A stretch of DNA of 64,000 nt from a virus, in the IMG/VR virus record IMGVR_UViG_3300006735_000013, positions 64,001 through 128,000 of that record; one strand, given 5' to 3'. Shown in pieces: positions 33,960 through 38,641 of this stretch. Within the stretch, counting starts at the first letter, position 1. Each line of letters starts with the position of its first letter. The notes under the pieces were generated by a model that saw only the letters and a program-made list of their open reading frames with translations, was not told the origin of the DNA and did not search any database. The position numbers and the translations under genes are program-made.

Positions 33960-34550
33960 TTACAGATCTGCAGGAACCGCAGCTCCATATATGGTAATAA
34001 GTAATTTTCCAGCTGTTAAAGTAGCAGCGGTATCATTTTCACCCTGACAAACATAAAGAAATTTATCAGCTACTGCATTGTTATCATACAAAACTGATGT
34101 GTCTACACCTACGGTGTTTGCGATGCCTGTGATGGCTGCAGTTTGAGTGTCGGCTTGAGTTCCGCCAGCGGCGGTAGGCTTGCCTACACCATCAACACCA
34201 AACTCAAGGTCAATTGTGGTTGTGCCGCCGACGAGAGCTTCTAAAACTTGAACTCTCAGTTCATTGACCACTCCAACTTTTGCTACTGTTAATTGCCCTA
34301 TACTAGAGACTGTATCAATAACTCCCATCGCAGCCGTATCACCGTTGCCGCCGCCGTTACCTGATGTGCTAATTGCCGCCTTAGATGTGCCAAGGTCTAA
34401 TGCAATTTCTGTGATTATCTGATGACCTTCTCTTTTTTGTGTTGTTGACACAATAGCGTCCTTAATTCCTGCGCCGGCACCCAGATCAACCGATTGTCCT
34501 TTCTTGTCCAAAGAGAACAGTCTCTTTCTACCTAATCTTCTGCTACCCAT
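33960..34550 (-). CDS. probable capsid-associated/decoration protein (196 aa)
   Basis: Gly/Thr-rich beta-type sequence directly after the MCP gene; strong AGGAGG RBS. Confidence 0.5.
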   Translation of the reverse strand: MGSRRLGRKRLFSLDKKGQSVDLGAGAGIKDAIVSTTQKREGHQIITEIALDLGTSKAAISTSGNGGGNGDTAAMGVIDTVSSIGQLTVAKVGVVNELRVQVLEALVGGTTTIDLEFGVDGVGKPTAAGGTQADTQTAAITGIANTVGVDTSVLYDNNAVADKFLYVCQGENDTAATLTAGKLLITIYGAAVPADL

Positions 34551-34556
34551 AATTAT

Positions 34557-34663
34557 TTCCTCCTTATTATGTGGTTAACGTTAACGCTTATCATCCACGA
34601 AACATAGCCAGCCACCTCGGCTATATCTCTTCAAGGGCCAGTGGCGTTACGACCCAGGAGGAA
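34557..34663 (-). ncRNA. candidate structured cis-regulatory leader RNA (four-way junction with kissing loops)
   Basis: P1 UUCCUCCU/AGGAGGAA, P2 GGGUCG/UGGCCC, P3 GAGAUAUAGCC/GGCUAUGUUUC, P4 GUGG..CCAC; loops carry GCCAC and GUGGC. Confidence 0.65.
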
Positions 34664-34676
34664 TCAAAGTCACTAA

Positions 34677-34683
34677 TAAATAG
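34677..34683 (-). promoter_or_regulatory. candidate late promoter CTATTTA
   Basis: CTATTTATTAGTG between the MCP terminator and the structured leader. Confidence 0.65.
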
Positions 34684-34690
34684 CTTTCAG

Positions 34691-34726
34691 AAAAAAGAAA
34701 AGCCCCACCAAGTTAATGATGGGGCT
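34691..34726 (-). terminator. intrinsic terminator after the major capsid gene
   Basis: AGCCCCATCA-TTAACT-TGGTGGGGCT followed by TTTCTTTTTT. Confidence 0.88.
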
Positions 34727-34754
34727 GAATCTTTTTGTTATCGGACTTTAGCTA

Positions 34755-36566
34755 CTAGCTAGAGCCTTCCTCACCTAAGAGGCCGCGGACGACAACAAGA
34801 CCGTACATATCAGGTCGTACCATCTTCTTAGCGTAACGGGTCATGACACCCTTACGTGGCACGAAGTCTTCCGTACCAAAGATGGTTGGTGTTACCTGCA
34901 ATGGTACGTAAGGAGCGTAGACAAATCCGCTTTCGAGGAATGAACTACCCTTACGGCCAACGAGGAGTACGTTACGCAAGAAATATGGATCAACGTAAAC
35001 GTCGAACTTCTTGCTCAAGCTACCAGCCTTGACAGCACCGATGGTGCCGCGGTCCGTATCAGCAGTTACGCTTGCGCGGAAACCGCTTGTGAACTCAAGG
35101 ATGTTGGCAACTTCTGGTGAACAAACAACAAAGTTTGCACCACCGCGAAGTGTCTTTCTGTGGATCTGAGCGCTAACGTCATTGATAGTCTCGATGAGTG
35201 TCTCATACCACTCACTGACTGTACCAGTGAAATCAGGAGCTGCGGCTGAAGCGCCAAGCTCATTACCGTTGCTGTCAACAAAAAGACCAGGAGCACGACT
35301 CCAGTAACGAGTACCAGCGGTTGCACCGTCGATCAATTCGTGAAGAAGTTCACGGTCAATTTCAAGAGCGATCTGCTCAGAAAGAATACCAGTCAACTCA
35401 ACCTCAGCGTCAAGGTTGTGATAAGCATTGAGGTCTTGACCCAATTCTGGGGACCACTTTGCCTTCAACTTCTTGGTCTGAGCTGTAACAGCGATACTGT
35501 CAACCTTGATGTCGATCTCAGCGATAGTGTTCTTAGCTACACCAGAACCTTGATTTCCGGTACCTGTATCCGGCTCTTCAAGGGCCCATGCGTCTCCACC
35601 AACAACAGAACCAAGTCCGTTCCCAGCTTGTAATTGATCCTTAAGTGGCACAGTCATGACTGAAGCCTGTGCTGCGATCGTCGCGGCGCCGGCGTCATGA
35701 ATAACAACAACAAGGTGATTTACACCACTAACGGTTTCAACTCTTGTAAGTCTCCTGACAAGTGAGCCATTATCAGTTGGCAAGGTGCTGAAGTCGATTG
35801 CTGCCAATCGACCCAAATCAACTTGAGTATTTGCGCCGCCGGCTGGACCGCCAAAGGCCACGTCCGAGGTCGCTGGGCCGCCAATTGAACCAGTTGACAT
35901 AATAACAGAAACTGTACCGCCTGCTGCGAGAATATCCGGGTCGAATCTGATCGCCTTCTTCTGTGCCTGAGTCAATGATGAAACTGTTGCACTAGTAACT
36001 GCTTCTCCACCTAGTCGGTTGAGCACAGTACCGGAAAGGGCGACGAAGCCGCCGGCCGCGCCAATTGTAGTCGAACCAGTTGCAGATGTCTGAGAGATAC
36101 CTGCTTCATAGTGTCCACCAGGGCCTGAAGCGTCTGGTGAGCCGGCAAGATCAACACCGCCAGTCAACTGGCGAGCGACAACGTTGCCACCATATATTGA
36201 AGCGCCTTTTGCTGCCCCTCCGCGGGCTGATTCGTGTGTAAAGTCAAGGAAGAAGATGAGGCCAGATGGCAAGCTCATCGGCTGAACCGAGACAAGATCG
36301 TTTGCAATCAATCCACCGAATACACGGCGAACGATTGGGAATGCAACTGCTGCGAAGCCTTCGACATCGCCAGCAGCCATAGAAGAAGCCTCACGCAGAA
36401 GCTCCTTGGCCTGGTTTTCAAGTAGGACGGCCATCCCCTGCTTTTGTTGTCCTTCGTTGAGTCCGTCGAGAAGACCTGTCTGCTGCCACTTGTTAAGTAG
36501 AGCTTCGCCTTCCTTCTGAACATTACGCTGAACAACACCTTCAGTTAGTCTTTGTAATACAGACAT
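34755..36566 (-). CDS. major capsid protein (T4 gp23-like)
   Basis: LLENQ, PIVRRVF, VSVQPMSLPSGLIFFL, KLKAKWSPELGQDL, EIDRE, YAPYVPL, GVMTRY. Confidence 0.97.
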   Translation of the reverse strand: MSVLQRLTEGVVQRNVQKEGEALLNKWQQTGLLDGLNEGQQKQGMAVLLENQAKELLREASSMAAGDVEGFAAVAFPIVRRVFGGLIANDLVSVQPMSLPSGLIFFLDFTHESARGGAAKGASIYGGNVVARQLTGGVDLAGSPDASGPGGHYEAGISQTSATGSTTIGAAGGFVALSGTVLNRLGGEAVTSATVSSLTQAQKKAIRFDPDILAAGGTVSVIMSTGSIGGPATSDVAFGGPAGGANTQVDLGRLAAIDFSTLPTDNGSLVRRLTRVETVSGVNHLVVVIHDAGAATIAAQASVMTVPLKDQLQAGNGLGSVVGGDAWALEEPDTGTGNQGSGVAKNTIAEIDIKVDSIAVTAQTKKLKAKWSPELGQDLNAYHNLDAEVELTGILSEQIALEIDRELLHELIDGATAGTRYWSRAPGLFVDSNGNELGASAAAPDFTGTVSEWYETLIETINDVSAQIHRKTLRGGANFVVCSPEVANILEFTSGFRASVTADTDRGTIGAVKAGSLSKKFDVYVDPYFLRNVLLVGRKGSSFLESGFVYAPYVPLQVTPTIFGTEDFVPRKGVMTRYAKKMVRPDMYGLVVVRGLLGEEGSS

Positions 36567-38401: not shown

Positions 38402-38641
38402 TCACTTATATTCGTTTTCTAAACGCTTTTTTTCTTTTGCGTTTGCTATTTTAATTAGTCTCATCTTTTCTAATTTCTTTTTTCTTCTCTTCACTGAACG
38501 CTTGGTGTAGTGTCTGCGTTCGCGAACCTCTTCCAGAATGCCACATTTCTTTACTTTTCTAGTAAACTTTTTTATCATTCTTTCGACCTGGCTTTGGTCT
38601 GTAATTTTTATTTCTGCATGAACTGGTGTTCTACGTCCCAT
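38402..38641 (-). CDS. rpsU: phage-encoded 30S ribosomal protein bS21
   Basis: VERMIKKFTRKVKKCGILEEVRERRHYTKRSVKRRKKK matches bS21 (ExxLxxFKRxxxxxGILxExRxRxxYEKPSxxRxxK). Confidence 0.88.
   Translation of the reverse strand: MGRRTPVHAEIKITDQSQVERMIKKFTRKVKKCGILEEVRERRHYTKRSVKRRKKKLEKMRLIKIANAKEKKRLENEYK

Follow-up and report, generated by a model that had tools for sequence, protein, structure and literature searches.

A conserved kissing-loop leader RNA behind the major capsid gene of marine T4-like phages and its possible role in the translation of a cement-like gene

Introduction

What does a phage gain from an elaborately folded RNA placed between its major capsid gene and the gene that follows? 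The question is raised by a leader of about 125 nucleotides (nt) in the IMG/VR virus record IMGVR_UViG_3300006735_000013, within a stretch of 64,000 nt (positions 64,001 to 128,000 of the record) that is here called the window and whose own numbering is used throughout. The leader precedes a gene of 196 amino acids (aa) on the minus strand. An earlier sequence-only reading had described it as a four-way junction with kissing loops, closed by a pairing that occludes the ribosome-binding site of this gene, and had proposed a new translational switch or, alternatively, loops that pair between molecules.

Comparison with homologues answers part of the question. At least 80 marine T4-like phages, all uncultured, share the leader, and it is established as a conserved, strand-specific, tertiary-structured RNA at a fixed position and in a fixed context. 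It is equally established that one conserved strand of this RNA has two alternative pairings, one within a three-way junction and one with the Shine-Dalgarno sequence (SD) of the downstream gene.

The Leader and Its Fold in the Window

The leader and its immediate surroundings comprise the following features, where P denotes a paired region, L a hairpin loop and J a junction strand.

34755..36566, minus strand: major capsid protein gene, 603 aa, T4 gp23 type (PHROG phrog_138 'major head protein', E = 1.2e-70), directly upstream of the leader RNA
34691..34726, minus strand: intrinsic terminator of the capsid gene from the terminator scan, a stem of 10 base pairs (bp) at 34701-34726 followed by a U-tract
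34677..34683, minus strand: CTATTTA, a likely late-promoter element, 4-7 nt ahead of the first paired base of P1
between CTATTTA and the ATG, minus strand: leader RNA, about 125 nt
34667..34671, minus strand: 5' strand of P1a, GACUU, from the RNAalifold consensus and the covariance-model alignment
34656..34663, minus strand: anti-SD strand UUCCUCCU, of which UCC (34660-34662) is the top of P1b and UCCU (34656-34659) is junction strand J1/2
34635..34655, minus strand: P2 hairpin, with GCCAC (34641-34645) in loop L2
34599..34629, minus strand: P3 hairpin, with GUGGC (34611-34615) in loop L3, which is closed by an invariant G-U pair
34611..34645, minus strand: L2-L3 kissing interaction of 5 bp, GCCAC (34641-34645) with GUGGC (34611-34615)
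34583..34596, minus strand: 3' strands of P1, namely P1b GGA (34594-34596, a mimic of the SD) and P1a GCGUU (34583-34587)
34571..34598, minus strand: P4 of the sequence-only reading, whose inner perfect palindrome GUUAACGUUAAC (34574-34585) is the P4 hairpin of the family
34557..34564, minus strand: SD AGGAGGAA of the downstream gene
33960..34550, minus strand: downstream gene that the leader would control, 196 aa, start codon at 34548-34550, with an arginine (Arg)-rich N-terminal helix (MGSRRLGRKRL) and then a jelly-roll body in the model

Folding of positions 34545-34690 of the minus strand with RNAfold gives a minimum free energy (MFE) of -42.9 kcal/mol (z = -2.47), and 4 of 200 shuffled sequences fold as well; the plus strand of the same region folds worse (-30.9 kcal/mol, z = -1.88). 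The MFE structure of the window copy is the four-way junction closed by pairing of UUCCUCCU with AGGAGGAA. Indeed, all the helices and loops of the sequence-only reading are found where it had placed them on the minus strand, and the terminator of the capsid gene and the CTATTTA motif are as it described. The folding signal of the window sequence alone is modest, and it is because of the comparison with homologues, not of the window fold alone, that the evidence goes beyond chance.

A Family of Leaders at a Fixed Position

A search of IMG/VR with the capsid protein returned 596 relatives, of which 80 loci at 55-68% identity were retained. A clearly homologous leader is present at the same position in 10 of these 80 loci and in L081, a closer relative found via the downstream protein. 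A degenerate pattern built from the leader then recovered at least 120 further IMG/VR stretches, which were filtered to 80 distinct sequences; together with the window and L081 they form the set of 82 aligned sequences. Every copy with enough flanking sequence (77/77) sits 63-162 nt past the 3' end of a capsid gene homologue, and the genome of the window (an IMG/VR record of 159,578 bp, 88% complete) holds exactly one copy of the motif. The 603-aa capsid gene product matches gp23-type capsid genes by tblastn, and a comparable GC-rich hairpin with a U-tract after the capsid gene also occurs in related loci. The leader belongs, as had been read from the sequence, to the gene after the major capsid gene.

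The motif matches no described RNA family in the searches made. Rfam 15 cmscan of positions 34300-35000 at E up to 10 gives sub-threshold matches over the terminator only, and six diverse family members searched at E up to 1 give no match on the motif. The absence of the leader from Rfam agrees with the sequence-only reading. Among GenBank phages (50,697 records), blastn with the flanking region, the window motif and the subtype-A motif finds no match, and the motif was not found in Flavobacterium phage immuto, the nearest cultured relative by capsid protein, or in the uncultured phage LR756508. A strict subtype-A pattern run over 185,579 representative prokaryote genomes gives two GC-rich matches, both negative by covariance model. 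Searches of the literature gave no description of this motif. A 2023 catalogue lists more than 10,000 candidate structured RNAs of viruses and phages, for which IMG/VR intergenic regions were mined, and reports cis-regulatory candidates beside structural genes (PMC10690425); its text names no motif of this description, and the leader could be among its unnamed candidates. A study of pelagimyophages reported that no riboswitches were found and that late promoters were not predictable (PMC7029224).

A Kissing Three-Way Junction

The consensus obtained by RNAalifold from the 82 sequences is a three-way junction of P1, P2 and P3 with no closure by anti-SD:SD pairing. P1 is formed in its outer part (P1a) by ACUUG near the 5' end of the leader, which pairs with CAAGU after P3. 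Pairs were counted on the alignment of the 82 sequences with the loop-loop helix entered as a pseudoknot. Overall, 95% of the cells are paired, while shuffles have 81% and slid controls no more than 46%; double changes occur in 17 of the 26 pairs, and none of 500 shuffles reaches any of these measures. In particular, 98% of the P1a cells are paired with double changes in 4 of 5 pairs, the window copy itself having one U-C mismatch in this helix. P2 is paired in 99% of cells and has two pairs with double changes, while in P3 double changes are seen in 9 of 12 pairs.

The kissing helix between L2 and L3 can be formed in all 82 sequences. Covariation is seen at two of the five positions of this helix, never with a change on one side only, and the degenerate search pattern had left these two positions free. 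Both loops are 7 nt long, two purines preceding the five bases that pair, and a G-U pair closes each of them. Four variants are found (L2/L3):

GCCAC/GUGGC: 49 sequences
GCCCC/GGGGC: 17 sequences
GCGGC/GCCGC: 11 sequences
GCCGC/GCGGC: 5 sequences

Variants of subtype A at the first kissing position were searched for, and none was found. The G-U pairs also identify the strand: since the pair closing L3 is an invariant G-U and G-U pairs are frequent in P1, the minus strand is the functional one, as the sequence-only reading had concluded from wobble pairs in the window.

Above an internal loop lies a second segment of P1, P1b, which was tested sequence by sequence because it aligns poorly. The mean duplex energy of cognate P1b strands is -5.4 kcal/mol, compared with -3.1 kcal/mol for non-cognate strands and -3.05 kcal/mol for shuffled partners. 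Covariation in P1b is plain in subtype B, where the strands read UCUGGUC/GACCAGA, GCGCG/CGCGC and GUUGUGGUC/GAUACCGCAAC. The junction strands J2/3 and J3/1 differ among subtypes A, B and C (AGAAAG with CAUU, UGAAGA with CGU, and CUG with AAC, respectively), and J2/3 is 2-7 nt long.

Directly 3' of P1 stands the P4 hairpin, which in 64 of the 82 sequences is perfectly palindromic, the 4-nt loop included. Four forms of the palindrome (GTTATTGCAATAAC, GTTATCGATAAC, GGTTAACGTTAACC and GGTTACGTAACC) with three centres (TGCA, TCGA and ACGT) are present. A simple P4 hairpin has no need of a self-complementary loop. The palindrome could let the RNA dimerise, offer a protein a site of dyad symmetry or give P4 a second pairing with the strand of J3/1 and P1b; regarding the last, AUUGAAUA is able to pair with UAUUGCAAU. 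The P4 of the sequence-only reading is retained in the family as far as its inner palindrome goes, whereas its outer GUGG/CCAC pairing is confined to close relatives (the window, L081, L097 and L102), in which it gives the 3' strand of P1 another partner.

Among the pairings proposed from the window sequence, P2, P3 and the complementary loops are therefore real, with strong covariation across the 82 sequences, whereas the anti-SD:SD closure shows no informative covariation. The four-way junction closed by this pairing is the MFE fold of the window copy; the fold of the family is a three-way junction, closed by a different P1 (ACUUG... with ...CAAGU) and followed by the separate palindromic P4.

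One Conserved Strand with Two Partners

The pairing that the sequence-only reading had taken for P1 returns as the alternative to the conserved fold. The sequence [CU]CUCCU is present in 82/82 leaders and is the sole junction strand conserved across the three subtypes. It straddles the top of P1 and J1/2: its 5' 2-4 nt form the top of P1b, where the 3' partner is GAA, GGA or GACC, a mimic of the SD. The second possible partner is the real SD, located 90-100 nt downstream. A contiguous anti-SD:SD helix of at least 6 bp is possible in 80/82 sequences and of at least 7 bp in 72/82, with 8 bp in the window; the capacity of this strand to occlude the ribosome-binding site, claimed for the window, is thus shared by nearly all homologues. 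Counts of anti-SD base with SD base are U/A 68, U/G 6, C/G 4, C/A 2 and U/U 2, an association limited to a single clade. Where the anti-SD strand has its C variant, it tends to be accompanied by GGAGG in the SD and GGA in P1b.

The energies of the two states were estimated by forcing either P1a or CUCC:GGAG pairing and refolding each leader. The difference E(P1) - E(anti-SD:SD) has a mean of -1.0 kcal/mol and a standard deviation of 4.8, P1 being favoured in 46 of 81 leaders and the anti-SD:SD form in 35. The window copy is at one extreme, with -29.0 kcal/mol for P1 and -40.9 kcal/mol for anti-SD:SD, that is, about 12 kcal/mol toward the occluded form; its features there are the U-C mismatch of P1a, the 8-bp SD helix and GUGG/CCAC as an alternative partner of the P1 3' strand. 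For the SD of the window copy, a probability of 0.017 of being unpaired is predicted. When the window leader is folded as a growing chain, the MFE structure has a P1-type closure at lengths of 85-100 nt, an extended P4 at 105 nt and, from 115 nt on, closure by the SD. To pass from the P1 state to the one with the SD occluded, the window copy would have to cross a barrier estimated at 8.7 kcal/mol, the family mean being 14.7 kcal/mol.

The Downstream Gene

The 196-aa downstream protein matches no Pfam or PHROG family. An AlphaFold2 model built with 49 homologues (pLDDT 86) has an N-terminal helix at residues 8-17 and a separate jelly-roll body. When compared with 48,161 chains, its top three structural matches, over 109-134 aligned residues, are phage capsid cement proteins:

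7eel_H, Pam1 cement protein: Z 7.2
8h89_J, GP4 cement protein: Z 7.1
7dou_4, KHP40 cement protein: Z 7.0

Scores below 8 in this comparison were rated middling. Foldseek against viral structures finds uncharacterised homologues only, and against the PDB weak cupin and jelly-roll matches only. The resemblance of the modelled jelly-roll to cement proteins, at a middling Z of about 7, is suggestive of a candidate capsid cement or decoration protein, which is what the sequence-only reading had guessed.

The proteins encoded after the motif are of at least five unrelated body types (149-373 aa), and their common part is the N-terminus MG[NSK]RR[LIM]G.[KR]R[LI] only; M1, R5 and R10 vary little or not at all in the alignment. 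The same constant Arg-rich N-terminus, MGNRRLGRKRL-like, is seen across the post-motif genes of L004-L200. The fixed cassette of promoter, leader and N-terminal arm suggests a modular swap site for capsid-surface proteins. Similar basic N-termini (MGTKRVGLAR..., MAKLGRYSADRKK...) are found in motif-less relatives behind quite different leaders. In three loci a tandem second cement-like paralogue directly follows the first and has no leader motif of its own (L014, 3671-4186; L031, 3954-4313; L033, 2856-3221).

Promoter-Like Element, Other Leaders and Neighbouring Genes

Almost all related loci, with the RNA motif or without it, have the sequence CTAWTTA past the capsid-gene terminator, and the element ends 4-7 nt before P1. 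In the window, ACTATTTA occurs eight times, 8/8 on the minus (coding) strand, when three would be expected. The occurrences of the two forms of the element are:

8688, 26043, 37961, 39906, 41547, 45619, 50498 and 55973, minus strand: ACTATTTA
33373 and 34677, minus strand: CTATTTA

The element reads CTAWTTA and not like the TATAAATA-like -10 sequence of T4-type late promoters. Judging from its strand-specific enrichment and its placement, it is probably a late promoter and a candidate consensus for this phage group.

Where the motif is missing, relatives have other leaders. In six of these relatives (L011, L022, L032, L043, L056 and L058) a different conserved leader follows the capsid gene. 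It begins with a covarying hairpin, whose 5' arm is rich in purines and SD-like and whose 3' arm is rich in pyrimidines (GGAAGGA/UCCUUUC, GGGGAG/CUCUUC, GAAGGGA/UCCCUUC), and continues with a second hairpin and the real SD; it may achieve the same anti-SD control by unrelated means. A third type (L039, L064, L034, L041 and L065) has a CAUGU...ACAUG hairpin, a GGAGGG SD and a gene beginning MGTKRVGLAR..., and in several of these loci an upstream in-frame ATG lengthens the open reading frame (…IIKGGFLTMGSKRVG…).

The head-gene cluster of the window also contains a gene for a phage-encoded ribosomal protein:

38402-38641, minus strand: bS21 gene (Pfam PF01165, E = 1.2e-11)

Among loci with enough upstream sequence, bS21 is not associated with the RNA motif (0/4 motif loci, 3/40 others). 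The gene suggested that the phage might be a pelagimyophage, an identity that was rejected, the local GC content being 40-48% compared with about 34% in PMC7029224. A search for the translational repressor RegA gave no signal in the 88%-complete genome, and control genomes were likewise without signal.

How the Leader May Act

The leader would form the 5' part of a late mRNA and act in cis on the translation of the cement-like gene. In the conserved fold, P1 joins the predicted 5' end of the transcript to the segment that follows P3, and P2 and P3, side by side, are locked by the loop-loop helix. With P1 closed, the SD would be free; with P1 open, the CUCCU strand would lie on the SD, and P2, P3 and P4 would become the arms of a cloverleaf, which is the four-way junction of the sequence-only reading. 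Since P1 can close at a time when the SD has yet to be transcribed, the likeliest mode would be a short period in which the nascent RNA can be translated, after which it would partition into the SD-occluded form. The output of the accessory capsid protein would thereby be capped in proportion to that of the major capsid protein, whose gene lies immediately upstream, and in the window phage the balance would lie far toward the occluded form. That the leader sets the translation of the cement-like gene in this way, through SD occlusion by refolding and with no obligatory effector, is the reading we tentatively prefer, held with somewhat less than even confidence; in particular, we infer the start of transcription, the interconversion of the folds in vivo, the effect on translation and the independence from an external effector.

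Several observations weigh against control by refolding. The anti-SD:SD helix has no informative covariation because both strands are nearly constant, and what keeps CUCCU constant could instead be a tertiary contact or the binding of a partner. Taken over the family, the SD is predicted to be unpaired with a probability of 0.40, only slightly below the 0.49 of capsid-gene start regions (p = 0.04). The energy gap between the two states spans about +/-12 kcal/mol among members, which is unexpected for a finely tuned switch, and members with a long P1 (subtype B) have the open-SD form at equilibrium. Furthermore, the barrier in the window copy is low, and therefore any kinetic window would be short. 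Finally, the kissing three-way junction is more elaborate than the masking of an SD needs, which hints at a specific binding partner.

Some of these points can be turned into a case for a leader that does not switch at all, but protects the 5' end of the late mRNA, fixes the efficiency of translation or both, its complementarity to the SD being a side effect of a pyrimidine-rich junction. P1 begins approximately at the predicted 5' end of the transcript, SD accessibility in the family is close to that of control start regions and the wide energy spread between the folds argues against tuning. However, plain hairpins would suffice for stabilisation, CUCCU is the only junction strand kept in all subtypes with the SD as its only constant complement, and the SD of the window is predicted to be almost fully paired, so that we consider a static leader quite unlikely. 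A binding partner would instead make the kissing-loop junction a true sensor, either a new riboswitch class for a phage structural gene or a sensor of assembly, a proposal that taken as a whole is doubtful but carries some weight. In its assembly version, the pool of free cement protein would be read through the Arg-rich arm, giving feedback on virion stoichiometry in the style of ribosomal proteins, and the palindromic P4 might add concentration-dependent RNA dimerisation to the sensor. The corresponding autogenous control, by which the arm of capsid-free protein would bind the junction RNA and either stabilise the SD-occluded form or block the ribosome, would match synthesis of the protein to capsid availability; on its own it is unlikely, though deserving of serious attention. 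Such autoregulation has phage precedents in T4 gp32, which acts on its own leader pseudoknot, and in the P22 scaffolding protein. Circumstantially, the RNA always stands ahead of a gene with a constant Arg-rich N-terminus on at least five different bodies, the arm is modelled as a helix (residues 8-17) apart from the jelly-roll, and an elaborate conserved tertiary fold suits a specific partner. Yet motif-less relatives with different leaders also have a basic N-terminus, and for this reason the arm is probably a capsid-binding or targeting element first; moreover, the RNA adjoins the N-terminal codons, and their co-occurrence may be simple linkage. An orphan riboswitch, in which a small molecule or ion at the three-way junction would stabilise P1, free the SD and turn the gene on, draws on the parallel P2 and P3 with their loop-loop contact, on the overlap of P1 with the expression platform, on the near equality of the two folds in mean energy and on the lack of a match to known families. 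A shared small-molecule pocket is nevertheless unlikely because J2/3 and J3/1 vary among subtypes, and neither a sole regulated gene that is structural, which offers no metabolic logic, nor a single copy per genome is in its favour; we regard this form of sensing as distinctly improbable.

Pairing between molecules, the alternative raised by the sequence-only reading, would have the loops, as in phi29 pRNA, or the palindromic P4 build dimers or rings with a structural or regulatory role. The loop complementarity does covary as in the pRNA family, and P4 is palindromic through its loop in 64/82 sequences with three centres, which a hairpin alone would not need. Pairing within one molecule is favoured, however, because both loops are on adjacent helices joined by a short J2/3 of 2-7 nt. 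The genomic context gives the pRNA-like idea no support either: the RNA heads an mRNA that has an SD and a start codon, the phage is of the T4 type, in which packaging uses no RNA, and cmscan finds no match to the Rfam pRNA family. Intermolecular assembly is accordingly very improbable. An undescribed self-cleaving ribozyme of the 5' untranslated region (UTR), with a three-way junction and loop-loop contact as in hammerheads, is barely credible: the general architecture and the phage and metagenome setting are all that speak for it, while cmscan gives no hammerhead, twister, pistol or hatchet match (in the window at E up to 10), the family sequences lack the hammerhead core CUGANGA and the junction varies between subtypes. 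The preferred reading therefore remains control of the cement-like gene by refolding of its leader, in the tentative terms given above.

Relation to Known Systems and Significance

A close parallel in general design is the maturation (A) gene leader of MS2 and other Levivirus phages, a cloverleaf closed by an upstream strand on the SD, where a transient structure delays closure (PMC4615214). Both leaders are about 125 nt long, with three hairpin arms inside the pairing of an upstream pyrimidine strand with the SD, and in both, for the present leader by prediction, an earlier structure using the same upstream strand keeps the SD open on the nascent RNA; the MS2 leader limits the synthesis of a virion protein, as is proposed here. 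There is, however, no sequence or structural homology between them, and the present leader belongs to the mRNA of a DNA phage, made from a probable late promoter. Its alternative P1 fold is a covarying kissing three-way junction and not a small metastable hairpin, being the more stable state in more than half of the members. In addition, control of the MS2 leader is kinetic, whereas here only a folding order is predicted.

The junction itself recalls the purine riboswitch type (RF00167) in architecture only: a P1-P2-P3 junction, P2 and P3 side by side with a loop-loop contact, P1 overlapping the expression platform and a location in the 5' UTR directly before the SD. Unlike that type, the leader has no RF00167 covariance-model match, its junction strands are not conserved across subtypes, its two 7-nt loops are joined by a Watson-Crick helix of 5 bp, and the regulated gene is a structural phage gene. 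In phi29-like podophages, phi29 pRNA (RF00044) exists as an RNA of its own, and on the portal its loops pair from one molecule to the next. It shares with the leader a three-way junction and two loops whose complementarity is kept by covariation, but the element described here is an mRNA leader of T4-like phages with no Rfam match. With the operators of T4 gene 32 and of the P22 scaffolding gene, the leader has in common a structured RNA in the protein's own 5' leader and a protein divided between a large assembly and a free pool; the folds are unrelated, and binding of the cement-like protein to the leader is hypothetical. The gene 32 leader pseudoknot is mentioned as an autogenous operator in PMC10690425.

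We class the leader as a new RNA family within a familiar kind, that of structured leaders masking an SD, with a kissing-loop junction and a target gene that are unusual. As a well-supported family with at least 100 instances, it would join the few cis-regulatory RNAs of DNA phages and is one of the few tied to a virion structural gene, not to metabolism or replication. Its four co-evolved loop-loop pairs on one scaffold are possible orthogonal kissing interactions for RNA engineering. For the phages themselves, the leader lets one ask how abundant marine myoviruses set the amount of an optional capsid-surface protein relative to that of the major capsid protein.

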